From a virus, in the IMG/VR virus record IMGVR_UViG_3300032163_000001, positions 110,249 to 174,248 of that record: a stretch of 64,000 bases of DNA, one strand, 5' to 3'. Under the pieces are notes generated by a model. It saw nothing but the letters and a program-made list of their open reading frames with translations, searched no databases and was not told where the DNA came from. Below are positions 9,483 to 57,653 of the stretch, in pieces. Each line of letters opens with the position of its first letter. The first letter of the stretch is position 1. The translations under genes and the position numbers were made by a program.

Positions 9483-10577
9483 CTAACACGGTAATTTATT
9501 TATAATCTCTTTATTTATTTTTTGTAATAAGAGTTTCCATTCATCTCTGTTAGAGTTAGTTTTAGCATGAGTAGAATGATTTAACCAGATTAGATTTTCT
9601 CTTGAGTCGTTTTGTTTGTTATAGTCTATGTGATGCAGGTGAGCTTCATCTGTTAACAACTCTTCTGTAATTGGATCTATGTTGTTTTGTTCTTGTTTGA
9701 TTTGACTTCGAAAATCTATGTTGAAGAATTTTTCTGTGTAGGGTGCAAATCTTTGTTCTCTATCTTCTATCCATCGATAGTTGTTTGGTCCAGTTCTTTT
9801 TTCTATAACTTCTGGAATTAGTAGTGGACTTTTATACCCATATTTCTCAAACACCTTTTCTTCAGACTTCTTTCTAACTTCAGGGTTAGACATAGCATGT
9901 TTAACTCCATATCTTTCTAAGTTAGTATTTTCTCTTCTCTCTTTAAACTCTTCAACTTGAGAAGGATTTTCTACTCCATATTTTTGAATACAAGTTTCTT
10001 TCTTCTTTTCTTTAATTTTAGATTCTCTTCCCGGATGTCCTTCTTCATAGTTCTTTTCCCAAGTATTTAAACACCTTTCCATAATATCAGGATTTGACAT
10101 CGCGTGTTTAACTCCATATCTTTCTAGATTAGTATTTTCTCTTTTCTTCTTAAATTCTTCAACCTGAGATGCATTTTTAACTCCATATTTCTCTAAAAAT
10201 GTTTGTTTACTCTTTTCTCTGATTTCTCTCCTCTTCATCGCATTATCCACACCATAGCGTTCTAAGTTCGTTCTTTTTGATTTTAAAGGATTGTTATAGG
10301 CGGGAGTTCCATATTTCTTTATTTTTGCTTCTTTCACTAGATTTTTATGAAATTCACTTTTCTGTACACATTTCCCATGGTATTTAAAGTATCCTCTTTC
10401 CATACAATCGAAGTTAGTAGCCTTTTTGCAAACTTCACAAAAACCTTCGTCATCTTTTTTTAAATATAAATCATAATATTCTTGAACTTTACTATGAAGT
10501 TTTTGAATATGCGTAGATAAGCTTCTTAACAATTCAAAATTCTTGTTACAAATTCTACATACTTTTTCACTAGACAT
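9483..10577 (-). CDS. HNH homing endonuclease with tandem YGV-repeat DNA-binding modules
   Basis: C-terminal HHIDYNKQNDSRENLIWLNHSTH is an HNH motif. Three or more repeats of ExYGVxNxSQVEEFK..RENTNLERYGVKHAMSNP. N-terminal Cys cluster. Confidence 0.65.
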   Translation of the reverse strand: MSSEKVCRICNKNFELLRSLSTHIQKLHSKVQEYYDLYLKKDDEGFCEVCKKATNFDCMERGYFKYHGKCVQKSEFHKNLVKEAKIKKYGTPAYNNPLKSKRTNLERYGVDNAMKRREIREKSKQTFLEKYGVKNASQVEEFKKKRENTNLERYGVKHAMSNPDIMERCLNTWEKNYEEGHPGRESKIKEKKKETCIQKYGVENPSQVEEFKERRENTNLERYGVKHAMSNPEVRKKSEEKVFEKYGYKSPLLIPEVIEKRTGPNNYRWIEDREQRFAPYTEKFFNIDFRSQIKQEQNNIDPITEELLTDEAHLHHIDYNKQNDSRENLIWLNHSTHAKTNSNRDEWKLLLQKINKEIINKLPC

Positions 10578-16115: not shown

Positions 16116-17225
16116 TTATACTGGTTCTTCTCTTGACCCTAAGTAACAGCCTTTATTCACTCCACTATGGAACCATTTCATATGTCTCATAAGTTCTTCG
16201 TTAGTAGGACCTTCTTCAGATGGTAAATAAGAAACTTCTATGTAAATTTGAGTACATCTACACTCACCATCATAAAATCGAGACATAACATCTCCAAAAT
16301 ATTGTAGAGCATTAACTCCCTCTCCATTTACCCCATCAACAGTCCAAGTATTCCCGGTTTTTGGATTGTCATACCACAGATTTGCTTCCTCAACATAAGA
16401 AGTCTCAAAAGAATGGGCCCCTGATATATATACATGACCTCCAACTTGTATCGCCAAGTTCACGTAACCTGCATGACCTGTATCTACGCTTCTTACTAAA
16501 GCATAAACCTTAACATAATTAATTAATGAACCTTGCGGTATGTTAAAAGACAAAAACCCATATAAATCTTGAGGATCGAAACTACTAACTTCTATATAAA
16601 GTTGAGAAACGTAATATGTTGTTTCAGGACTATCAACCCCATACCCAAATGTATAGTTAGTATGCAAACTATTTATTTCTTCTGGTGTCCAAGGCTCATT
16701 TGTAAACGGATTTATATTTAGTCCCCAGCAAGTTGTTTCCCAATACTCATTGACTGGAAGATACTGTAACATATTACCAAGTCTTACATAAAATTTATCA
16801 CTATTTGATCCAGATAACTGTTGAGCCCGAACATAAATTTTAACAGACTCAATTACTCTATTAATAGGTATATTAAAACTTCCCATTGTAAATTCATCTG
16901 TACCTGCAGAGTCTGTATAATTATAATCATAATCCTCTTCAGGATATTCATTTATAGTTTCATATAGGTAAGATCCTTCTGACGGAGTCCAAGCAACATA
17001 TAAATCAGAAATTGGAAACTGTCGTTGCGTATAGAATGGTTCAGTTATACCGTTTATATAACAATAAGTAGCATCCCCATCGTGATTTCCTATCGGATCA
17101 TCCACAAGAGCATAATTGTAGTTTCCACCAGATCGGAGTTGTATAACATTAACATCAGATGTTGGAACTCTATTTTGAATTTCCATAGTATTATCCCAAC
17201 CAGCAACCTTTATTTTCTCCACCAT
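16116..17225 (-). CDS. Tail fibre/receptor-binding candidate carrying the conserved C-terminal ELMRHMKWFHSGVNKGCYLG motif
   Basis: 369 aa, Tyr/Asn-rich. C-terminal motif is shared with the upstream 824-aa gene. Confidence 0.5.
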   Translation of the reverse strand: MVEKIKVAGWDNTMEIQNRVPTSDVNVIQLRSGGNYNYALVDDPIGNHDGDATYCYINGITEPFYTQRQFPISDLYVAWTPSEGSYLYETINEYPEEDYDYNYTDSAGTDEFTMGSFNIPINRVIESVKIYVRAQQLSGSNSDKFYVRLGNMLQYLPVNEYWETTCWGLNINPFTNEPWTPEEINSLHTNYTFGYGVDSPETTYYVSQLYIEVSSFDPQDLYGFLSFNIPQGSLINYVKVYALVRSVDTGHAGYVNLAIQVGGHVYISGAHSFETSYVEEANLWYDNPKTGNTWTVDGVNGEGVNALQYFGDVMSRFYDGECRCTQIYIEVSYLPSEEGPTNEELMRHMKWFHSGVNKGCYLGSREEPV

Positions 17226-19665
17226 GAAACCATTTAAGATGTCTCATAAGTTCATCCGTAGTGGGAGCCGATGGTGGAGGTGGTGCTTCTGTATATGACC
17301 AAATACTCCCATCTTCTAAACCGGCCCATAATATATCATTTTCAACTTCAAGTGAATAAACGCTCGAATCAAAAGATTGAACATAAATCCAATCTGGATC
17401 ATCAAATCTATAAATCTTAGAATGTGTTTCAGAATTGTGAACACTAACATATAATTTATCATTATAGACAGCAATCTTTGCAGGTATGTTAAAAGGTTCT
17501 TCAAGATCTCCACCAATCTGGGTCCAATCTGTTTCTGATCCACTATATTTTCTAACTACTGTAGGAATTCCGTATGCTCCAGCGACACCGTAAAGTTCAT
17601 CATTAAAAATAATCAAATATTGTCCATAATAGTTATCAGGACTTATTGCTGTCCAAGTTGACTCACCATCAAATCTATAAACTTTTCCCTGATGACCTGC
17701 ACCATAAAGAACAACGAAGTGATTATCAATTGCGGCTAATGATATAATACTAACTTCTGCCCCTAATCTCCCAACAGAAGTCCATACTGGGCCATCATCT
17801 AAACGGTACACTATCCCAGATGGATAAGTTCCCACATATATTTGCCCTTCTCCAGTACCAGTATAGTCAAATTCGATCATACTATAAACAGATTTATTAG
17901 TTGATAAAGTACCTCCAACTTGAGACCATAAATCTGTCCCAGAATCGTACTTATATACTCTTGCATCACTGTCTGTACTACTGTAAATTCCTGTATAAAG
18001 CTCTCCACCATATACCAACAATACATTTGGTCTTTTAGGGGGTTGATGAATCATCAGTGTCCAATCAGGATCGTCAAAACGATACATTTCCATATATTCT
18101 GGAATGTCTACTGCAGTAAAAATGTTGGGAGATAGAAATGCAAAACTATGAACCTCAAATACAGGATATCCTGAGTATAAAGGAGTTCCTCTATTGATAA
18201 ATATAGGTTCAGGAGTTGATTCGTATGACCAAACAGTTCCATCCATTCCAGACCATAGTAATCCATCCCACGCTTTGAAACAATACAGGGAATCATATAT
18301 TTCAAAAATACCAGCTAACTGCTCCCAACTACCTGGAGTTCCTAAATATTTATAAAATTTAATCGGCCAAGGATCATCTCCAAAGCAACCTCCTATATAT
18401 AAGTCAGTACCATCAGAAACAAGTTCTCCATCCCCTCCATCAGCAAAATTTCCAATCTCAGTCCAGTCTGAGGGACCATTATACTTATAAACAAGAAGAG
18501 ACTCTTGATAATGGCAACCATAAAGTTCTCCGTTATGAACTACTAATCGAGAGCCTACTAAGTTTCCACTCTGTGCAACCCAACTACCAGTTACCAGTTT
18601 ATAGACCTTTCCATTGTAACCACCAGCAAATAACTCCCCACCAAAATCTATTAAAGAGTAAATTAAAGTTTCACTATCCACTTGTCCAAGGTCAGTCCAA
18701 GACTCACCATCTAATCTATAAACCTTTCCACTATTCCAGGTTCCAATATGGATTGTTCCATCAAAAACACACATACTACAAACTTCCTCATTAGTTCCAA
18801 TATCTCCTCCCACCTGTGTCCATGTTGTTTCACCCATATACTTGTAAACACGAGCATAATATGTTCCTGGAATTGTGCTTGAAGATGTTCCAACGTAAAG
18901 ATCACCACCGAATTCAACAAATCTATAGGCTGCTTCATATTCTCTAAAAGTACCAACAATTGTCCAAACACCACCATCATATCTATAAACACCAGCTAAG
19001 CTCGCATCGTCTGAACTTGTGCCAGAATATATTTCTCCACCAAAAGAAACAATATCTGACACTCCCCCATATGATAGAACCTCTCCTTTGTAAGTCCATC
19101 CAACAGGTGCTGGTTTTGTGGTAACTTGAGGATGGGATAGACCACTTTCCGGGGAAATTTCCCCTCCATCCAACAATAGTCTAAAATAATAAGTTGTATT
19201 ATAGAGAGCCTTAAGTGGTTGAATTGCAAAATCTATTTCTTGATATCCTATGTCAAAATATTTTGACAATGTTCCACTTTCATAGTAATTACCGTAAAGA
19301 GTACTGTTGCTTAGTTTAAAAGTAGATACTTGAGAAAATTCGTCGCCCTTACCGTTAGCATAAACCCAGTCGTAAGGGTAGGATCCAACATCACTAAAAT
19401 TCACGTCATCAGTACTATATTGCATTGAAACTATACCAGTAGCACCTTCCATCCCAAAGGTATTAACTGCTACCCTGCACCTAATTATGTTGTTATTTTC
19501 GAGTGTGGGTGTTACATTCTCCTCCTCTAATTGTTCAGTAGGTTCGGCTGCATCGTCTTGAAAAAACTTCCAATTGCTTTGAAACTGGGCAAACCAAAAC
19601 CGTAGAGAAGCTGGTGCTTCACCTTCTAATGTAAATGGATTCCACTCAAACTTTCTAATTGGCAT
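17191..19665 (-). CDS. Beta-propeller (kelch-like, YG-repeat) tail fibre protein ending in the ELMRHLKWFHGGENKGCWLG motif
   Basis: 824 aa with many repeats of the G(E/D)LY.G....(V/I)Y(K/R)(Y/F)(D/N) type. Confidence 0.5.
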   Translation of the reverse strand: MPIRKFEWNPFTLEGEAPASLRFWFAQFQSNWKFFQDDAAEPTEQLEEENVTPTLENNNIIRCRVAVNTFGMEGATGIVSMQYSTDDVNFSDVGSYPYDWVYANGKGDEFSQVSTFKLSNSTLYGNYYESGTLSKYFDIGYQEIDFAIQPLKALYNTTYYFRLLLDGGEISPESGLSHPQVTTKPAPVGWTYKGEVLSYGGVSDIVSFGGEIYSGTSSDDASLAGVYRYDGGVWTIVGTFREYEAAYRFVEFGGDLYVGTSSSTIPGTYYARVYKYMGETTWTQVGGDIGTNEEVCSMCVFDGTIHIGTWNSGKVYRLDGESWTDLGQVDSETLIYSLIDFGGELFAGGYNGKVYKLVTGSWVAQSGNLVGSRLVVHNGELYGCHYQESLLVYKYNGPSDWTEIGNFADGGDGELVSDGTDLYIGGCFGDDPWPIKFYKYLGTPGSWEQLAGIFEIYDSLYCFKAWDGLLWSGMDGTVWSYESTPEPIFINRGTPLYSGYPVFEVHSFAFLSPNIFTAVDIPEYMEMYRFDDPDWTLMIHQPPKRPNVLLVYGGELYTGIYSSTDSDARVYKYDSGTDLWSQVGGTLSTNKSVYSMIEFDYTGTGEGQIYVGTYPSGIVYRLDDGPVWTSVGRLGAEVSIISLAAIDNHFVVLYGAGHQGKVYRFDGESTWTAISPDNYYGQYLIIFNDELYGVAGAYGIPTVVRKYSGSETDWTQIGGDLEEPFNIPAKIAVYNDKLYVSVHNSETHSKIYRFDDPDWIYVQSFDSSVYSLEVENDILWAGLEDGSIWSYTEAPPPPSAPTTDELMRHLKWFHGGENKGCWLG

Positions 19666-20534: not shown

Positions 20535-21437
20535 TTATTCATCTCCGTTTAAGCCATAGTAACGAAAACCATACCACCAAGCACCATAGCCTGGTTTAAA
20601 CCATTTAGTATAGTCATCTGGAAAGTCTGGACTAATCTCAAAAGCTTTGATGTAGTTTGCCTTTTCTCTAGTATTATATTCTTTTTCATTCGAGATATCT
20701 AAAGATACATCAAATACTTCATATCTAGGTTCAACTACAAATAATCTTATTTCACAAATACCGATACCATATAGAGATATATCATCTCTAGGAACTAATC
20801 TTAACTCTAGAGAGCTAATTTCGTTACTAGTAAATTTTCTACTAAAAATTTTTTCCCAAAAGACTGTTTCCCAAGTTGAACTAAAAAATATTTCATCAGG
20901 TTTTAGTACACGCCATGAAGAACCTACTTTAATTATCGCACTTAAAGGAAAACTATTAGGAGGTCCAGATAGTTGTCTACCTCTAACTGCTATATCAATC
21001 CATCTATCTATCGATGAAGTTTCAACATCGTTAAAACCAAACGTAATAGCCTTAGAAGATGGATATTCAAATAAAGGTAGTGTTTGAGAAACGATTGTGA
21101 TTAATCTATTTTCTGAATAATGTTGTATTTCTCTTGGACTTGTTACTAGAGCAATAATTGTAGTATATAATAATTCGGGATAATAATATTGTATATCATG
21201 AGTATTAGTATCATACCAAACTATCGTAAAACTTGGTCCTTCAATATAATGTTGTAAGTCTTGAATAGACTCTTCAGAAACTATACTAAATAACGGTGTT
21301 TCAATATAGTTTTGTAAGTCTTGAATAGACTCTGCAGAAACTATATTAAACAATGGCGCTTCAATATAATTTTGTAAGTCCTCTATATCTATATCTATAG
21401 TAGACGTAGAATCGAGTTCTTCTTCATAAGTAGGCAT
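20535..21437 (-). CDS. Hypothetical structural protein with three tandem 19-20 aa repeats (IQDLQNYIE.PLF.IVS.ES)
   Basis: Protein repeats correspond to roughly 60-bp DNA tandem repeats. Confidence 0.45.
   Translation of the reverse strand: MPTYEEELDSTSTIDIDIEDLQNYIEAPLFNIVSAESIQDLQNYIETPLFSIVSEESIQDLQHYIEGPSFTIVWYDTNTHDIQYYYPELLYTTIIALVTSPREIQHYSENRLITIVSQTLPLFEYPSSKAITFGFNDVETSSIDRWIDIAVRGRQLSGPPNSFPLSAIIKVGSSWRVLKPDEIFFSSTWETVFWEKIFSRKFTSNEISSLELRLVPRDDISLYGIGICEIRLFVVEPRYEVFDVSLDISNEKEYNTREKANYIKAFEISPDFPDDYTKWFKPGYGAWWYGFRYYGLNGDE
21243..21400. repeat. About 2.6 copies of a 60-bp tandem repeat inside the 20535-21437 gene
   Basis: TCAATATA(A/G)T(G/T)TTGTAAGTCTTGAATAGACTCT(T/G)CAGAAACTATA(C/T)TAAA(T/C)AA(C/T)GG(T/C)G(T/C)T repeated head-to-tail. 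Confidence 0.6.
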
Positions 21438-28460: not shown

Positions 28461-30566
28461 CTACCATTCTACTAAAACTAAACCCGAACCTCCTGATGCG
28501 CCTTCACCGTGGGTATGCCCAGCCAGACATCCGCCACCCCCTCCACCACCTGCTCCACTATTTGCGGCAGCTGACTCACCATCGTCTCCATTACCATTAG
28601 AAGACGATGCACCATCACCGCCGGCTCCTCCATTTCCATATAAACCTCCACCACCACCACCACCACCAAAACCATAACTCAGAAAGTTTAATCCACCTCC
28701 ACCGCCAAATCCTATAGTAGATAATGGAGAAGGAAACGGACCTCCGTCACCAGCGGATCCTGTAGGATACCCACTATTACTACCCGCACCTCCACCACTT
28801 CCACCAATTAAAAACACAGTAAAAGCACCAGACTGTCCAGATCCATTGGGATATTGTCCTCCAGAACCAGCTAAATATTGGGGCCCGCCGCCGTTTCCAC
28901 CGTTACCGCTTTCATAAAGTGAACCTTCATGACCTGCTTTTCCTCCATCTGCTATAACAAAGCTGCCAAAAGATGACAGTGATCCAATAGTTTCTTCTGC
29001 ACCTCCAGTTCCAACGATTACAGAAATTTCACTACCTGGAGTTACGTGGACAGGATACCTATACACTACAGCTCCTGATCCTCCGGCACCGCCACCGGAA
29101 TTACCTGGCGGAGCGCCAGCCCCACCGGGTCCACCTCCACCTCCACCACCTAAACAAGTTACATTAACTAGTGATATATTATTTGGAACAGTAAAAGTGC
29201 CACTTACTGTAAATAATTGAGATTGGTTAGACACAGCGTTTCCTCCTGATCTCGAAATTTCATACCAAACACCATTGTAATTTACTAAAGTCAAAGTACT
29301 TCCTGTAACTGCCGTAAAATTTACACCTCCAGAAAGAACTATCAAACTTGGATTATGAACTAAAGTAGTATTACTATTTCCAAAATACAGTGTAATCATT
29401 ATTCCTGAATTGTTTCCTGAAGGAGCACCTGTAAAATTAATTATATTAGTAGACACTGTATTTTGTACTGCAAGAACCCCACAAACGTGACTACCTGATG
29501 ATAAAATGTTCGGAGTAGAAGAATTATCATTAACAATTTTAACAAGGTTTGTATATCCCATAGATAAGTCAAGAGTAGATATCGCTATTCGTAAACTATC
29601 AGAATTATTAATACTCCTAGTAGATGTATAAGAAGGTAGTAAATTTCCTCTAGCTGATTTGCCTATAAAATTTCTCAAATAATCTGTCTCTTGATCTAAT
29701 GCACTAGCAGCAGCAGTCAGACTTATTCCTTGAGTTGCTATTGTAGTAATACTAGTATAATTAGGATCTATATCAGATGCACCAACTGATCCTACATAAG
29801 TTCTTAGTTTAGTTAACTGATCTTCTAAATCTAGACTAAGTATTCCAATACCATCATGATTTAGAACTGGGTGAGAATACATATCATTTGCTAACTGTGT
29901 TAAATCTAATGAACTTCCTCCACCACCTCCACCAAAAGGTTGCCAACCACTAGAAGATCCATAATATACATCATCACTACTTCTAACAATAATAACTCTT
30001 GCGTAATCTCTAAGGAGATCAAATGTTGGTATGTTATCTTCTAAACCAAGGTATAGTTTTGAATAAATTCTTTTAACTGTAGGATTCTCAGGGTCTAAGT
30101 CACTTATAGAAACAGTTGAAAATTGTTCTCCTGGCAAGTTTACAAGAATAGCTTTTAGAAAAACATAAAGACCAGTTGCAAAAGGATTTCTTTGAGAAGG
30201 TTTTAGTATTCTAATTGAAGGCCTTGGTGCTGGTCTAGCCTTTTCATAAACATAATGCATTACTATATAATAGTATCCTGGTTCGTTCCAATATCCCCCA
30301 ACTCCAGGAGAAATATAGTAATCTCCATCTGCCATATCTACTGTACACTCTGATATGGTAATAAAAACGTCATCTTTGAAGAAAGAACCTGATGAGATAA
30401 GTATTTCACTTGTGGAGTCAGGAACTAAACTTACGTCAATTTTATCAGCAGAAAAGATACAATTCTCATAGTTGGAAACTAACCTTGTTAGTCTATTAAC
30501 TACGTTACTGTGGTAACTATCAAAGGGAGAAACTGTACAAGTATGAACAGGATATGGATTTCCCAT
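28461..30566 (-). CDS. Glycine-rich tail fibre protein
   Basis: 701 aa. C-terminal half dominated by GGGGGG/GNGG tracts typical of phage Gly-rich fibre proteins. Confidence 0.5.
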   Translation of the reverse strand: MGNPYPVHTCTVSPFDSYHSNVVNRLTRLVSNYENCIFSADKIDVSLVPDSTSEILISSGSFFKDDVFITISECTVDMADGDYYISPGVGGYWNEPGYYYIVMHYVYEKARPAPRPSIRILKPSQRNPFATGLYVFLKAILVNLPGEQFSTVSISDLDPENPTVKRIYSKLYLGLEDNIPTFDLLRDYARVIIVRSSDDVYYGSSSGWQPFGGGGGGSSLDLTQLANDMYSHPVLNHDGIGILSLDLEDQLTKLRTYVGSVGASDIDPNYTSITTIATQGISLTAAASALDQETDYLRNFIGKSARGNLLPSYTSTRSINNSDSLRIAISTLDLSMGYTNLVKIVNDNSSTPNILSSGSHVCGVLAVQNTVSTNIINFTGAPSGNNSGIMITLYFGNSNTTLVHNPSLIVLSGGVNFTAVTGSTLTLVNYNGVWYEISRSGGNAVSNQSQLFTVSGTFTVPNNISLVNVTCLGGGGGGGPGGAGAPPGNSGGGAGGSGAVVYRYPVHVTPGSEISVIVGTGGAEETIGSLSSFGSFVIADGGKAGHEGSLYESGNGGNGGGPQYLAGSGGQYPNGSGQSGAFTVFLIGGSGGGAGSNSGYPTGSAGDGGPFPSPLSTIGFGGGGGLNFLSYGFGGGGGGGGLYGNGGAGGDGASSSNGNGDDGESAAANSGAGGGGGGGCLAGHTHGEGASGGSGLVLVEW

Positions 30567-34345: not shown

Positions 34346-34389
34346 TTCTTCAATCGAAGATAAGGAAAGGAAGGTGAAACCAAAAAATT

Positions 34390-34417
34390 AAGGGGTGACT
34401 TTCAATAGTCACCCCTT
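34390..34417. terminator. Bidirectional terminator (AAGGGGTGACT-ttcaat-AGTCACCCCTT) closing the MVP cassette and the convergent gene
   Basis: Perfect 11-bp stem, A-run upstream and T-rich downstream. Confidence 0.6.
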
Positions 34418-36100: not shown

Positions 36101-36131
36101 GTTTTTGAATCCAATTTTTAAGGAGGAGAAA

Positions 36132-36671
36132 ATGAAACATCTTGGTCATATTATTGTTCAAATCTTTAAAGTGGCTGTAGCATTGTTCCTAATCTTGGCG
36201 ATATTTTCTGTGGTCCATGATTATCTAAACTTTTGTGTTCCTGTTCAATTTCAAGACGAACTAGAGAATACTAAAGTTCTTTTAACAAAGATGAAAGTGG
36301 ATCCAAAGAAACTTAATGAGTTTTCAATAGCTGTAAAAACAGCAAGTCGTCTAACTGGATTTGCAGAAGAACTTCTAATAGCTCTGGTCTATACGGAATC
36401 GAGATGGATAACAACCGCTTGTTCTCCTAAGGGCTATAAAGGATTAGCACAAATTCCATATGATTTATGGGATCCTGATATTAATGTTTTGACTGGAGCT
36501 AAAGAACTAGCGAAAAAACTGATTCAATCAAAAGGTGATCTAAAACAAGCTCTAATGCGATACAAAGGTTATAAAGATTTAGACTGTAAGGAGGGAAAAG
36601 AAGATGCAGAAAGAGTTATTAGAATCGCAAGAGATCTTAGAAATTCGAAAGTCCGCGGCGGAGAAATCTGA
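36132..36671 (+). CDS. Lytic transglycosylase (SLT-domain) with N-terminal TM anchor; endolysin or virion-associated lysin candidate (start set to ATG 36132)
   Basis: ALVYTESRWITTACSPKGYKGLAQIP matches the SLT E.S....A.S..GA.GLMQI motif. N-terminal hydrophobic IFKVAVALFLILAIFSVV. SD AAGGAGGAG. Confidence 0.65.
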   Translation: MKHLGHIIVQIFKVAVALFLILAIFSVVHDYLNFCVPVQFQDELENTKVLLTKMKVDPKKLNEFSIAVKTASRLTGFAEELLIALVYTESRWITTACSPKGYKGLAQIPYDLWDPDINVLTGAKELAKKLIQSKGDLKQALMRYKGYKDLDCKEGKEDAERVIRIARDLRNSKVRGGEI

Positions 36672-36693
36672 AGATATTATAGGAGGGACGAAA

Positions 36694-36888
36694 ATGTTCT
36701 TACAAAGACTCTCAGAAAGAATCCAAAAGGGGGGTTTCTGGTTTCTTTTGATCCTGTTAGCGGGAATTCTAATTGGATCTTTTGGTATGTTCAAATACCA
36801 CAAATCGCAATTAAAGAATGCTACAACATTAAGTGGTATTCTCATTGATGGAGTAGCTTACGATTTGAAAAAGAGAAACCCTTTCTAA
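36694..36888 (+). CDS. Small single-TM membrane protein, holin/spanin-like (start set to ATG 36694 after GGAGGG)
   Basis: MFLQRLSERIQKGGFWFLLILLAGILIGSFGMFKYHK. Lies directly downstream of the lysin gene. Confidence 0.45.
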   Translation: MFLQRLSERIQKGGFWFLLILLAGILIGSFGMFKYHKSQLKNATTLSGILIDGVAYDLKKRNPF

Positions 36889-36899
36889 AGTAAATTTTC

Positions 36900-37375
36900 G
36901 TAATGGTGAGGCCCATAATTGTTGATGTTTGGAAATGCTACTCCGCCACAGGGCACCCAAGATCTATTGGGGTAGACACCTTGGACTCGAAAAGTCCGTC
37001 GAGCTTCACCATTACGATTTGATCCGAATAAAGAATGAGAGGATGCCTGGTAAATGTATTATCAAATAAGTATGGGTTGATACCCTCCTGCGGGCATCAT
37101 CTCTAGAAAAGAAAGGCAGTGCGGTTTGGGGTGAGTATACAAACCTGCGTTTGAATCAGGAGACAGACGCACAAAACCAAGGAGGAAGGAACAGTAGGGA
37201 AAGCCGAATGCGAGATTATACCGGGAGATGACCCTGGCGGGCTCTGCATTAAATACTGCCTTGGGTGTTCTGGCCCACTCATTAGACCAGTCAAGACTCC
37301 TTAATTGAGAAAGACACCTATCGGTGAAAATCCGGTCACTGCCTTGTATTTATTTTATTTTTAGAGAAGAAAGGA
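36900..37375 (+). ncRNA. GC-rich, ORF-free island of about 480 nt; candidate structured RNA of unknown class
   Basis: GC roughly 45% against about 31% in the flanks. No ORF of 60 aa or more on + strand. Multiple short GC stems (CCTG..CAGG, GGACTCGAAAAGTCC). Confidence 0.3.
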
Positions 37376-37382
37376 GGAAGCA

Positions 37383-37640
37383 TTGGATATTACTGAAGAA
37401 ATTATTGAAGCTATAGATAACTGGCAAAATGATCCAAGTTGTCATCAACTAACATGTGGAAATAATTCAAATCACAAACCTCTTGTAATAGTTAAAGAAG
37501 AATCTGGTAAGATTTTTTTAAAGTGTATGAATTGTGATTACAAACAAGATCATGTGCCTGAATCTATAAAAAATTGGTGGAATGAAAAATCCGAAGTAAA
37601 TCATAAAGATTCAAATAAATTGGTTTGGAACAAACTTTAA
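37383..37640 (+). CDS. Small zinc-ribbon protein (TTG start)
   Basis: SD AAAGGAGGAAG then TTG. CHQLTCG...CMNCDY. Confidence 0.4.
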   Translation: MDITEEIIEAIDNWQNDPSCHQLTCGNNSNHKPLVIVKEESGKIFLKCMNCDYKQDHVPESIKNWWNEKSEVNHKDSNKLVWNKL

Positions 37641-38360: not shown

Positions 38361-38428
38361 AATTATATCAGATATCTATAGCACTAAAACTATTGTAAAG
38401 ATAATACGTTGAAAGGGAGGTGAAAACA

Positions 38429-39352
38429 TTGAGCTTAAATGAATTAATAGGTAGAAAATCAGTTGGTCGTCCTTGTGTCCCTACTTTAAATTTCATAGTA
38501 GGAAATAGACAATGTAACATGGAGTGTAAATATTGTATTTCTAAAATGACGAAGGCTGAGTTATCTAAACGAGGAGAGGTTTCTCCTTTATGGTATAGAA
38601 ATAGACGTTTAGCTTTTAGCGTAGCAAAGAAGTTTAGTACTGATACAGTGTTAATCACAGGAAAAGGAGAACCAACTATCTGGAAAACAGAATTACTAGA
38701 TACTATAGCAAGAGCTAGTGACGAAGGATTTATTACAGAACTTCAAACAAATGGAGTTTTATTAGATGAATCTTATTGTATTCATCTTGCTGGAGCAGGT
38801 CTTAATACTATAGCTATTAGTAGAGTCACAGTTGATACAGCTACGAATAATTGGATATGTGATCCTATACATTTTAGTACTCCAAATTTACACCAGTTAA
38901 TTCCAATGATCCAAAGACTTGAAATAAAGATGAACATTCGAATTACTTTTGTAGCTATGAAAGGTTACAATGACTCAGTTGAAAAGATAGAGAAAACATG
39001 TCTTTGGGCTTTATCGAATGGAGTTAAACAAGTTACTATTAGAAGAATGGGGATGCCAAATCTTAGTTCAATTGAAAGTTTAGATAGTGCATTCGAGATC
39101 GAAAAATTTGTAACAGATAACCTTGTTCCAGATGAAGAATGGAAAAAGATCATAGATTTCTTTATGAAAGAATACACTATTTTAAGAGTTTTTGACTGGG
39201 GCTCAATCAGCTGGTCTATTAATGGAGTCCAGTGTTTAATAGCTGATTGTTTAACAGTGCCAGGATTAGATGGCACAATCAGGTATCTTATATATTATCC
39301 TGATGGTCATTTAAGATATAGTTGGGAACACGATTCTACAATAATTTTTTGA
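38429..39352 (+). CDS. Radical SAM enzyme (CxxxCxxC; viperin/MoaA-like core), function unknown; start uncertain (TTG 38429 or GTG 38420)
   Basis: RQCNMECKYC, GKGEP glycine motif, LQTNGVLLDE and LNTIAISRVTVD resemble viperin IVSNGSLIRE / LDILAISCDSFD and MoaA. Confidence 0.6.
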   Translation: MSLNELIGRKSVGRPCVPTLNFIVGNRQCNMECKYCISKMTKAELSKRGEVSPLWYRNRRLAFSVAKKFSTDTVLITGKGEPTIWKTELLDTIARASDEGFITELQTNGVLLDESYCIHLAGAGLNTIAISRVTVDTATNNWICDPIHFSTPNLHQLIPMIQRLEIKMNIRITFVAMKGYNDSVEKIEKTCLWALSNGVKQVTIRRMGMPNLSSIESLDSAFEIEKFVTDNLVPDEEWKKIIDFFMKEYTILRVFDWGSISWSINGVQCLIADCLTVPGLDGTIRYLIYYPDGHLRYSWEHDSTIIF

Positions 39353-39386: not shown

Positions 39387-39460
39387 TCAGGAGTCGTCTA
39401 ATTTAGGCAGGACATTTGACTTTGAATCAAAAAATAAAGGTTCGATTCCTTTCTCCTGAA
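39387..39460 (+). tRNA. tRNA-Gln (anticodon UUG)
   Basis: Acceptor TCAGGAG/CTCCTGA perfect 7 bp. D-arm GTCT..GGAC. Anticodon arm TTTGA-CTTTGAA-TCAAA (U33, anticodon TTG, A37). T-arm AAAGG-TTCGATT-CCTTT. No encoded CCA. Confidence 0.75.
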
Positions 39461-39539: not shown

Positions 39540-40160
39540 ATGGATATATGCAGTTATGGTTGTGGATTAGAAGCAAAATATACTTTAAAAAACGGAAAGT
39601 TTTGTTGCGAACGAAGTTGTAATCAATGCCCTGAAGTAAGAAAGAAGAATAGTCTTTCTTTAAAAACAAGTTCTCATTATATTAGATTTAACCCAAGTAA
39701 AATAATGGATACTTGTACTTTTTGTAATAAATCAATTCCATATCCTTCAAAAAAAGGACACGAAAAGAGCTGTTATTTAAATCCAAACAACTTAAAATTA
39801 TGTATAGTTTGTGAAAAACCCATTAAGAACTATAAGTTTAATATAACATGTTCCCATATATGTGCAAATGGACACTTTAAACAAAATACAAAAAATGGAA
39901 TTCATTGTGATGAATACAGAAGAATCTGTTTTAAGTATCACAAAAAAGAATGCATTATATGTGGTGAAAGTAATATTGTACATGCTCACCATTTAGATAA
40001 AAATAAAGAAAATAACTCTCCCAAAAACTTAATTCCCTTATGTCCTACTCACCATTATTATATGCATTGTAAACTTAAAGAATTAATAATCAATAAAATC
40101 GAGTCTTATTTAAGAGAGTGGGAAAACTCAATGTTACTCTCAACCAAAATCATAATATAA
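39540..40160 (+). CDS. HNH homing endonuclease with N-terminal C-x-YGCG zinc-finger module
   Basis: ICGESNIVHAHHLDKNKENNSPKNLIPLCPTHH is an HNH motif. N-terminal MDICSYGCGLEAKYTLKNGKFCCERSCNQCPEVRKK is shared with the 48857-49615 gene. Confidence 0.65.
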   Translation: MDICSYGCGLEAKYTLKNGKFCCERSCNQCPEVRKKNSLSLKTSSHYIRFNPSKIMDTCTFCNKSIPYPSKKGHEKSCYLNPNNLKLCIVCEKPIKNYKFNITCSHICANGHFKQNTKNGIHCDEYRRICFKYHKKECIICGESNIVHAHHLDKNKENNSPKNLIPLCPTHHYYMHCKLKELIINKIESYLREWENSMLLSTKIII

Positions 40161-40602: not shown

Positions 40603-40890
40603 ATGGCTAAATTTATAGACTTTGTTGATAAGAAATTTATATGTGATAACTGCAAAAAAGTTATTCAAGGAAAAGAAATTGTCTTAGAATTAGCTCCAAC
40701 TAATTTTGATATATTAACTCCTCTTCACCCACTCATTTTTATTGATAAAGATGGGATTATCAAAGGAGGTTCTAAATTTGCAGACGGGTCTATTGGGGAC
40801 CAAATATTGAACTGTCCAAAATGTAATTACCCTCATTTATATGGATTTACACCATATGAAGAGAAAACATTAAAAGAGATGGGTCGGTAA
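40603..40890 (+). CDS. Small zinc-ribbon protein
   Basis: CDNCKK...CPKCNYPH. The stop codon overlaps the tRNA 5' end. Confidence 0.4.
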   Translation: MAKFIDFVDKKFICDNCKKVIQGKEIVLELAPTNFDILTPLHPLIFIDKDGIIKGGSKFADGSIGDQILNCPKCNYPHLYGFTPYEEKTLKEMGR

Positions 40891-40957
40891 GCTTAACTGG
40901 TTAAACTGCTGGACTCCAAATCCAGTCTTCGGGGTTCGAATCCTCGCCGGCCTGCCA
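40881..40957 (+). tRNA. tRNA-Trp (anticodon CCA)
   Basis: Anticodon arm CTGGA-CTCCAAA-TCCAG. T-arm CGGGG-TTCGAAT-CCTCG. Acceptor GGGTCGG/CCGGCCT (2 G-U pairs). Discriminator G and encoded CCA. D-arm is atypical. Confidence 0.65.
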
Positions 40958-52467: not shown

Positions 52468-53505
52468 TTAGACAACTTCATCTTCTTCAAAGAAGAAGTT
52501 TAAAGCTTCTTTACATTCTTCTATACCACATCTATCTTTATCTAATTTATCTTCTGGCATAGACTTTGGAGTACCAGGAGGAGTATCCTCTTTTATTTCT
52601 TTATCTACATCAATTTCTTCTTCTGGACCCTCTTCTTCTCCCTCTGGTTCTTCCTCTGGTTCTTCCTCATCTGCTTCCCCTAGTTTTTTTTGGGCAATAT
52701 GACCTGCTGCTCCTCCAGCCACTGCTCCAGGTAGTCCTCCAGCCATTGCTCCAAGAGCTGCACCTCCAACCGCCCCGGCGATGCCTTCTTTTATCACTTC
52801 TTCATCTTCAAGTTCAGCTATTAATTTCTCGATAATAGCTTTTTCTGCATCATCTTCAGATGGTGCTCCTTTAGGTTTGGCTTCGGTTCCGCCTTCGTCT
52901 TCTTGCTGTCCAATAAGATCCTCTGCCTCTTCTACTTCTTTTTCTTCCTCATCTTCTTCTTCAGGTCCTTCTTCTTCAGGTCCTTCTTCCCCTTCTTCGT
53001 CTTTTGCCTCTTTTACTTCTTCTGGTTTTTCTTCCTCTGCTTCTTTATCTTTATCCTCTTCCTCTTTTGAAGGTTCTTCGTCAATCTGTTCTTTAAAAAT
53101 TTTGTATGCTTCTAGAACTTCTTTATCCTCTTCTCCTTCTTCTTCTTTTTCATCTTCTTTCTCTTCATCAGGTTCTGCATCTTCACTAAGTTCATCTTTT
53201 ACTGCTTTAACACCTTCCGGAGGTTTAGCCTCAGTTCCACCTTCATCTTCTTGCCGATCAATAAGTTCTTCATTTTGTTCTCTAAAATAGAACCTCTCTA
53301 AAATAGAAGAAACATTCACGTGAGTTTCAAGTTCTCCTTTTCCCGGATAATCTAAAACTTTTTTAATTGGAGGCGTAGTAATATCAAATTGAGAAGTATC
53401 ATATTCAGAAACCTCTTTAATCGCCTCTTTTAACAAACTTATGTAAGAAACTTTCTTTGTTGTCATTGTATATTTCCTCCTAACATAGAATTCTGAAGTG
53501 TTCAT
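52468..53505 (-). CDS. Extremely acidic Glu/Asp-rich protein with internal repeats (QEDEGGTEAKP x2) and Gly/Ala-rich patch; scaffold/internal-head or DNA-mimic candidate
   Basis: 345 aa with roughly 40% E+D. Head-module position upstream of portal. Confidence 0.45.
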   Translation of the reverse strand: MNTSEFYVRRKYTMTTKKVSYISLLKEAIKEVSEYDTSQFDITTPPIKKVLDYPGKGELETHVNVSSILERFYFREQNEELIDRQEDEGGTEAKPPEGVKAVKDELSEDAEPDEEKEDEKEEEGEEDKEVLEAYKIFKEQIDEEPSKEEEDKDKEAEEEKPEEVKEAKDEEGEEGPEEEGPEEEDEEEKEVEEAEDLIGQQEDEGGTEAKPKGAPSEDDAEKAIIEKLIAELEDEEVIKEGIAGAVGGAALGAMAGGLPGAVAGGAAGHIAQKKLGEADEEEPEEEPEGEEEGPEEEIDVDKEIKEDTPPGTPKSMPEDKLDKDRCGIEECKEALNFFFEEDEVV

Positions 53506-56978: not shown

Positions 56979-57653
56979 CTATGTGAAATTATAGACAATA
57001 TGCATTCTATCCGAAATGCAAAAGTTATACTTTTCTGCCATGTCTAAAACAACTTCAGAATTACCAATTAGTTCATCTCTAGTCTTTCCTTGTGGCATAA
57101 GATAAACTCTAAGGTTTGGAAAATTTAGCACCTTCAAGAAATCTAAATATTCATAAATCAACTCTTTATCTTCACATACTAATTTAATATAAACTCGTTC
57201 ATCATTCATTATTTCTTTACTTAGTTTCATATAGAAACCAAGATCTTCGTTTGTAAATATTTTAGGAGACAATATAAATCGAACCTTTTTCACTGGATCT
57301 ACTTTCTTAATTAAACCAACTAAATTACAACCATTAGTCTCTACATTATAAATTGGAGCATTTACACCATTTATTAAAGATATTGTCTGATTTAAATTTA
57401 AGTTAAAAGTTGGTTCTCCACCTGTAATCAATAACCCACAATTATGTTCATCTACAATATTCTGGATATCTCTTAGAGCATAATCTGCTTCATTAGAAAT
57501 CCTCATCTTAACTAAAGTATCACAAAATGGACATGGTGTTCCTGCAGATACTCTTGAGCACCTCTTAAATCTAAGAATTATCATTGGTTGTCCTACATCT
57601 TTTCCTTCTCCTTGAAAACTTAGAAAATTTTCTATAAGTCTAACCTTTGACAT
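56979..57653 (-). CDS. queE: 7-carboxy-7-deazaguanine synthase (QueE, radical SAM)
   Basis: N-terminal ENFLSFQGEGKDVGQPMIILRFKRC matches QueE EMFQTLQGEGYFTGVPAIFIRLQGC. Cys cluster C-x8-C-x2-C then CDT. Confidence 0.7.
   Translation of the reverse strand: MSKVRLIENFLSFQGEGKDVGQPMIILRFKRCSRVSAGTPCPFCDTLVKMRISNEADYALRDIQNIVDEHNCGLLITGGEPTFNLNLNQTISLINGVNAPIYNVETNGCNLVGLIKKVDPVKKVRFILSPKIFTNEDLGFYMKLSKEIMNDERVYIKLVCEDKELIYEYLDFLKVLNFPNLRVYLMPQGKTRDELIGNSEVVLDMAEKYNFCISDRMHIVYNFT

Follow-up and report, generated by a model that had tools for sequence, protein, structure and literature searches.

What a phage encodes in a spacer without genes of appreciable length is the question raised by positions 36889-37382 of the window, i.e., the whole stretch of 64,000 nt of viral DNA that was analysed. 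A preliminary description, based on the letters of the window and a list of its open reading frames, had singled out this place as an ORF-free, GC-rich island of roughly 490 nt and had proposed that it is a structured RNA or, alternatively, a degenerated intron or mobile element.

The GC-rich island and its genomic setting

The island is the entire 494-nt spacer that separates two plus-strand genes, and the coordinates in the preliminary description were exact. It starts directly after a small membrane-protein ORF (36604-36888, plus strand; TAA stop at 36886-36888), which overlaps the end of the gene for an SLT-domain lytic transglycosylase (36105-36671, plus strand) and is called as a protein of 64 amino acids (36694-36888) in the public assembly. 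It ends directly before a TTG start codon at 37383, which is preceded by the ribosome-binding site AAAGGAGG. The longest plus-strand ORFs within the island measure 39 and 46 amino acids and, if gaps between ORFs of at least 80 amino acids are considered, it forms the longest gap of the window, the runner-up (ca. 220 nt) being less than half as long. The reported jump in GC content to about 45% was also confirmed: the island contains 45.1% GC and its 3' core 49.4%, compared to 33.0% for the whole window, and the level of the island is reached by 1.9% of 494-nt segments, the remaining peaks being low-complexity coding regions. The GC maximum of the window (51%) lies in a tail-fibre-related gene (28461-30566, minus strand) with Gly-rich (GGT/GGA-type) repeats, and a 345-amino-acid ORF at 52468-53505 (minus strand), without a PHROG match, consists mostly of acidic low-complexity repeats (GAA/GAG-rich on the coding strand). 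An ORF of 63 amino acids on the minus strand of the island (37103-37294) had been dismissed as an artefact, rightly so, as its frame is open in this genome only and contains 2-6 stops in the relatives described below. The island consists of two parts, a 3' core (37114-37350) and a 5' part (36889-37113).

The window belongs to a metagenomic contig (ENA ERZ27247924; 111 kb or longer) of a tailed phage that has a major head protein, a portal, a DnaB-like helicase and a family-B DNA polymerase, the polymerase being less than 30% identical to T4-like ones. Downstream of the island follow genes for a dNMP kinase, a radical-SAM enzyme, two tRNAs and a NAPRTase. The tRNA genes, tRNA-Gln(UUG) at 39387-39460 and tRNA-Trp(CCA) at 40881-40957, are located 2-3.5 kb downstream of the core, with an HNH endonuclease gene (39540-40160) and two small ORFs between them. 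The radical-SAM gene (38420-39352, plus strand) is one of two in the window; the other (56979-57653, minus strand) is clearly QueE-like (E = 3e-25) and may point to a pathway that modifies DNA with 7-deazaguanine.

Comparison with known RNA families and elements

The preliminary description had suggested an Rfam/Infernal scan. This was performed with the 4227 models of Rfam 15 on the window at gathering thresholds, on positions 36600-37600 at E <= 10, and on the copy of the core in one of the related contigs (L037) together with the module on its 3' side; no family matched in the island. At gathering thresholds two tRNAs were the only hits in the whole window, and at E <= 10 nothing beyond chance-level matches was found in 36600-37600. 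The string that had been considered reminiscent of the P4 strand of RNase P is, therefore, not backed by any match to RNase P RNA, either at gathering thresholds in the window or at E <= 10 in 36600-37600. The same holds for group I and group II introns at both thresholds and, since the flanking genes are complete, the idea of a degenerated intron was abandoned: the SLT gene and the small ORF are full-length in comparison with those of relatives and have intact stop codons, and the downstream gene possesses its own ribosome-binding site and start codon. The mobile-element idea fared no better, as the core has no repeats or terminal copies. A repeat search of the window revealed no repeat family touching 36889-37382. 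Elsewhere in the window we noted three tandem copies of a 60-nt repeat inside a minus-strand gene (21218-21397), a 144-nt direct repeat with 81% identity inside another gene (9875-10225), and two adjacent genes with 79% similar 3' ends (16138-16209 and 17195-17266), which suggests that they are paralogs.

Other candidates were examined with equally negative results. ARAGORN identified only tRNA-Gln and tRNA-Trp in the window, both outside the island, and neither ARAGORN nor Rfam detected a tmRNA or tRNA-like structure within it. GOLLD, ROOL, OLE, raiA and HEARO RNAs were matched neither in 36600-37600 (E <= 10) nor in the L037 copy. For the known riboswitch classes no Rfam aptamer matched, and the downstream gene and its spacing are inconsistent across loci. 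With regard to diversity-generating retroelements (DGR), retrons and CRISPR, there was no second copy or direct repeat, and no such genes occur among the annotated neighbours and large ORFs. Searches of 50,697 phage records with the island (blastn) and of the literature with conserved strings of the core yielded no match. A link to cobalamin through GGTGAAAATCC was considered and rejected, as none of the other metagenomic matches to the pattern that were scanned (12) proved to be accompanied by a cobalamin riboswitch.

Homologs of the core in related phages

The core (37114-37350, plus strand) was found in nine distinct metagenomic phage contigs, including that of the window, with scores of 126-274 bits (nhmmer, cmsearch). 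To retrieve the eight further contigs (L004, L017, L037, L040, L052, L053/54, and the truncated L058 and L059), homologs of two flanking proteins, the dNMP kinase and SLT, were used together with a single pattern scan of metagenomes. Pairwise identities between the core sequences range from 72 to 87%. Between the SLT protein of the window and those of the relatives the identity is only 32-35%, whereas it amounts to 47-66% for other shared neighbour proteins and to 59% for the dNMP kinase.

According to covariance model R1 there is one copy of the core per genome, without a second copy in the window, and distant relatives (L055-57, with an SLT protein of 233 amino acids, L001/2, and L010-15) lack it. 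Weak partial matches to the core model at positions 2216-2285 of contig L051 (17 bits, E of ca. 1e-3) and 34365-34403 of the window (E = 1.2) lie in the convergent intergenic region before a MucR-like gene and are probably due to chance. In IMG/VR, two protein-based scans and five DNA patterns, derived either from the core or from the 5' module, returned no copy, and a further scan retrieved two distant dNMP-kinase loci only, both without the RNA; the clade of phages with the core seems to be absent from this database. In GTDB genomes the pattern CCTTGGGTGNNCTNNNCCACT gave 108 matches, none of which was homologous by nhmmer. So far the family is restricted to a single clade of tailed phages, which are large and uncultivated.

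Predicted fold of the core

The fold was defined on alignment A6, which contains the nine sequences. It is closed by helix P1 and comprises nine nested helices and two pseudoknots between hairpin loops and the 3' region. The conserved block of ca. 235 nt is bounded exactly by P1 (37115-37121 GGCAGUG with 37337-37343 CACUGCC), which is paired in 97.6% of cases and whose outer pair occurs as G-C, G-U or A-U. A pairing proposed by RNAalifold between 5' CAGUGC and an internal GUACUG was rejected, as it does not hold for the window or for L004; P1, in contrast, covaries. Hairpins P2 and P3 follow P1 without linkers. In P2 (37123-37128 GGUUUG with 37140-37145 CAAACC), which is fully paired throughout, three of the six pairs are changed on both sides (GGUUUG/CAAACC, GAUCUG/CAGAUC, GAUCUA/UAGAUU), and its loop L2 provides the 5' strand of pseudoknot PK1 (37129-37133 GGGUG with 37315-37319 CACCU). 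PK1 is also 100% paired, and three of its five pairs are changed on both sides, in L004 and L017. Hairpin P3 (37146-37153 UGCGUUUG with 37164-37171 CAGACGCA; 97% paired, two pairs changed on both sides) contributes in the same way, through its loop L3, the 5' strand of PK2 (37159-37162 GGAG with 37297-37300 CUCC), which is 100% paired and shows a change from G-C to C-G in L004. According to this model, PK1 and PK2 would join the 5' and 3' ends of the core into a compact knot.

The central domain (37177-37264) is closed by P4 (37177-37182 CCAAGG with 37259-37264 CCUUGG) and the pair 37192/37258, and holds P5 (37197-37199 with 37203-37205), P6 (37210-37217 with 37240-37247; two pairs changed on both sides) and P7 (37221-37225 with 37233-37237). 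The latter is variable: every complete copy has a short hairpin there, but with unrelated sequences. Pair 82/149 of the central domain occurs as C-G, U-A or U-G. P4 itself is invariant and, therefore, uninformative. In the 3' domain (37262-37290), helix B (37270-37273 CUGG with 37287-37290 CCAG) has two pairs changed on both sides (CUAA/UUAG, CUGA/UCAG), and an alternative helix A (37262-37265 UGGG with 37274-37277 CCCA) would form an H-type pseudoknot with it. Helix A excludes P4; as both are invariant, the alignment does not separate the two, and their mutual exclusivity could indicate a switch. The fold is completed by a terminal hairpin (37320-37324 with 37332-37336; 100% paired) with a 7-nt loop, UGAAAAU, that is invariant in all seven copies that reach that far. 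A U-rich tract follows the 3' strand of P1 in the six complete copies. In total the core contains about 100 invariant positions, many of which are predicted to be unpaired.

Of the motifs that the preliminary description had listed, the hairpin GGACTCGAAAAGTCC was found in the island. The proposed pairing of GGTGAGGCCCA with TGGCCCACTCA did not hold, since the former contributes to the 13-bp closing stem of the 5' module and the latter lies in a pseudoknot region of the 3' core.

Evidence for a structured, non-coding RNA on the plus strand

Covariation among related phages, which the preliminary description had suggested analysing, provides the main evidence for this fold. Standard pairs occupy 98.4% of 430 pair cells, a count from which P7 was omitted because its columns are out of register. 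Sixteen pairs are changed on both sides, compared to 5.2±1.7 in 500 shuffles, none of which gave a number as high, the fold being tested on the same nine sequences that were used to derive it; when the partners were slid by 1-3 columns as a control, at most two pairs were changed on both sides. Nine of the 11 helices, both pseudoknots among them, contain at least one such pair. Given a small sample that is restricted to a single clade, several of these changes may represent single inherited events, and a measure of further pair types (24, compared to 24.8 in shuffles) did not exceed its control.

Folding energies contribute little. The comparison with shuffled controls, another suggested check, gave unremarkable z scores for the plus strand (-1.34 for the core and -0.89 for the whole island; -2.34 and -2.64, respectively, for the minus strand), and the case for an RNA consequently rests on the comparative evidence. 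The choice of strand follows from the G-U pairs: 43 G-U cells would turn into A-C mismatches if the opposite strand were read, so that pairing amounts to 98.4% on the plus strand and 89.3% on the minus strand, which favours the former. In all loci the flanking genes lie on the same strand as the core.

A coding function can be dismissed, because indels within the core are limited to 1-2 nt among the full-length members and every frame contains stops in most members, none being open throughout. In tblastx the core gave weak matches in several frames and on both strands, as is observed for conserved non-coding DNA. It is thus well supported that positions 37114-37350 (plus strand) represent a structured RNA of ca. 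235 nt belonging to a previously uncatalogued family. The initial guess of a structured RNA has, therefore, held for the 3' 237 nt, which are non-coding, occur in nine contigs and show compensatory changes in nine of 11 helices, but not for the island as a single unit, as the 5' 225 nt are missing from the eight relatives. For the core, with homologs at the syntenic position and a predicted secondary structure with compensatory changes beyond those of the controls, we propose the family name SLT-3' RNA.

The 5' part and other accessory modules

The 5' part (36889-37113; 225 nt) has no counterpart in any of the eight relatives that carry the core. It contains a 5' module of 120 nt (36898-37017, plus strand) with a 13-bp closing stem (CGUAAUGGUGAGG / CUUCACCAUUACG) and four small internal hairpins, for which a minimum free energy of -44.9 kcal/mol (z = -3.66) was calculated, and a linker (37018-37113, plus strand) with one hairpin (GGAUGCC / GGCAUC; z = -1.38) and no homolog among the retrieved relatives. 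The sole relative with the 5' part is L051, the contig of which ends 70 nt into the 5' module. Its sequence is near-identical and its SLT protein 88% identical to that of the window, and it is thus too similar to be informative for testing the 5' module; a look-up of further variants gave the same contig only. For the two plus-strand ORFs in the 5' part, searches of phage records yielded no significantly similar protein.

A second GC-rich module, of ca. 165 nt and with a 12-bp closing stem (GCCAGCCCCUGA... / ...GAGGGGCUGGC; z = -2.65), is situated directly 3' of the core in L037 (1140-1300, minus strand), and its start is also present in L040 (1832-1873); it is missing from L017, L052 and L004. 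The module of L037 matched no Rfam family and has no evident homology to the 5' module of the window. The best explanation for the 5' 225 nt is that they form a separate, lineage-specific accessory module, other lineages having a different module 3' of the core. It thus seems that structured accessory modules are gained and lost while the core stays constant.

Transcription and possible roles

The SLT gene is the constant upstream neighbour of the RNA in the nine contigs. In the eight relatives the core lies on the strand of the SLT gene and starts 5-52 nt past its stop codon, a distance too short to accommodate a separate promoter; in the window it starts 443 nt past this stop codon and 226 nt past the small ORF. 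In L040 (1555-1598) and L052 (843-895) the spacer between the SLT stop and the RNA, of ca. 45-50 nt, is conserved and contains a small hairpin (GGAA...UUCC) and a TATAAAT-like string. On the 3' side the adjoining gene encodes 85 amino acids in the window, 243 in L004, and about 300 in L017, L037 and L052, at a distance of 20-190 nt from the core, and the window has its homolog of the 300-amino-acid gene at a distance of 5 kb. The ribosome-binding site that comes next in L017 is located ca. 10 nt past the conserved block and ca. 16 nt past the P1 core, which implies that the RNA would sit within a polycistronic mRNA.

The motif YTAYATATATTAATT, which was not found in the relatives, has five plus-strand copies in the window (3426, 6211, 30685, 36065 and 63147), where 1.8 are expected by chance. 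The four that were compared with the ORF list (3426, 30685, 36065 and 63147) lie 25-80 nt before a plus-strand ORF, that of the SLT gene included, and the motif is probably a phage promoter. A separate promoter for the island was considered and rejected, as the motif is situated upstream of the SLT gene and not within the island. Because most relatives lack room for a promoter and the only recurring promoter-like motif of the window is situated upstream of the SLT gene, we infer that the core is co-transcribed with this gene.

On balance, we favour the view, somewhat more probably right than wrong, that this is a phage structured RNA of a new family that is probably co-transcribed with the lysis gene and would act as a discrete folded RNA. 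It would arise as the 3' portion of the SLT transcript and would then act as a discrete, stably folded RNA, possibly trimmed from the mRNA, that may bind a specific partner (a protein, a small molecule or an RNA) or perform catalysis, rather than control the following gene. A discrete folded RNA seems most likely on the basis of the ca. 100 invariant positions, the two pseudoknots, and the linkage to the upstream and not the downstream gene. A more far-reaching version, which we regard as rather speculative, is that the core would constitute a new RNA class with its own biochemical activity, which could act as a ribozyme, sense a ligand or self-assemble like ROOL and GOLLD and would be deployed with the lysis enzyme late in infection, with exchangeable GC-rich modules (5' in the window, 3' in L037 and L040) that tune or extend the core.

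Several other roles have to be weighed against this. The core could regulate in cis, as a riboswitch or as an attenuator that binds a protein, the operon that it precedes and that always contains a dNMP kinase gene within 0.2-2 kb. P1, PK1 and PK2 would then be stabilised once a ligand or protein is bound, whereas in the unbound state pyrimidine strands such as CACCU or CUCC, or helix A in competition with P4, would influence readthrough or the accessibility of the ribosome-binding site. In every locus that is long enough a co-oriented gene set with the dNMP kinase indeed follows downstream of the core, the ribosome-binding site of L017 is close by, and the many invariant unpaired nucleotides are aptamer-like, while the invariant, mutually exclusive helices P4 and A and the U-rich tract after P1 in the six complete copies would also suit such a device. 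However, U-richness is the default at 33% GC, and no conserved terminator, antiterminator or sequestering helix was found, a terminator scan detecting a weak 6-pair stem only. Furthermore, the adjoining downstream gene and its distance vary by lineage, the SLT stop is near in eight of the nine loci, and no Rfam riboswitch matches. We consider a leader possible but doubtful. An element of the 3' untranslated region of the lysis mRNA, the fold of which would block 3'-to-5' exonucleases or mark a processing or termination site and thereby set the level or timing of the SLT protein, would explain why the core starts so soon after the SLT stop in the eight relatives, always on the same strand, and why a compact, P1-closed fold is followed by a U-rich tract. 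Yet the core of the window is far removed from this stop and from the small ORF (443 and 226 nt, respectively), the transcript of L017 must run on into the next gene, and simple stabilisers are short hairpins, so that ca. 100 invariant nucleotides and two pseudoknots exceed what protection needs; this role is, therefore, unlikely.

A last alternative dispenses with an RNA altogether and explains the locus as a decayed protein gene, a DNA site (an origin, a packaging site or an array of binding sites) or a recently transferred fragment, the similarity of which would be due to recency instead of selection. The GC content above that of the genome would fit a foreign origin, the minus strand of the window copy has its 63-amino-acid ORF within 77 codons without a stop, and an RNA more similar than its neighbours is what recent transfer would also yield. 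This alternative has been largely refuted and is very improbable, since compensatory changes in nine helices, pseudoknots included, are not expected for a DNA site or pseudogene, and the G-U asymmetry favours one strand. A decayed gene is at odds, moreover, with the small indels, with the stops in every frame of the relatives, with the weak tblastx matches that are scattered over frames and strands, and with the ORFs of the 5' part, which lack protein similarity.

Relation to known structured RNAs and implications

The closest analogues of the core are GOLLD and ROOL, which are likewise phage-encoded, contain multiple pseudoknots, were found by covariation and have no known function or protein partner. 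ROOL is roughly 580 nt long. GOLLD, often longer than 800 nt and induced at lysis, combines a conserved 3' region with a 5' region that varies (PMC12286853). The core of the window resembles it as a conserved 3' part that follows a lineage-specific 5' module beside a lysis gene, and the presence of two tRNA genes downstream in the window is reminiscent of both RNAs. However, the core has no Rfam match (E <= 10), is with ca. 235 nt far smaller, and is not adjacent to tRNAs. A likeness also exists to orphan motifs such as raiA and the candidates of Weinberg and Breaker, in which a conserved intergenic block likewise combines compensatory changes and pseudoknots with unpaired nucleotides that are invariant and a variable hairpin at the periphery; in contrast to these, the core matches none of the 4227 Rfam 15 models and occurs in one phage clade, in metagenomes only. 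Cobalamin aptamers are of similar size (ca. 200 nt) and closed by a P1 helix, and the hairpin loop GGUGAAAAUCC of the core may resemble their T-loop-type loop. The core differs from them by the lack of an Rfam match, another order of conserved blocks and the lack of a consistent downstream gene, and 12 other metagenomic matches to GGTGAAAATCCGGNCACTG that were scanned contained no cobalamin riboswitch. Because no model matches and the core is far smaller, we file it as a new family among the orphan structured RNAs of phages.

To the best of our knowledge, few phage-encoded structured RNAs of such complexity are known, and GOLLD and ROOL are still without a function. The immediate impact of the SLT-3' RNA is limited by its narrow range, i.e., nine sequences from one clade without a cultured host. 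Its size (ca. 235 nt), however, makes it suitable for chemical probing, cryo-EM or crystallography, and pull-downs of ligands or proteins, and its fixed place behind a lysis enzyme leads to the testable hypothesis that it may play a role late in infection, around lysis. The metagenomic "dark matter" of phages still contains RNA families that are absent from Rfam.
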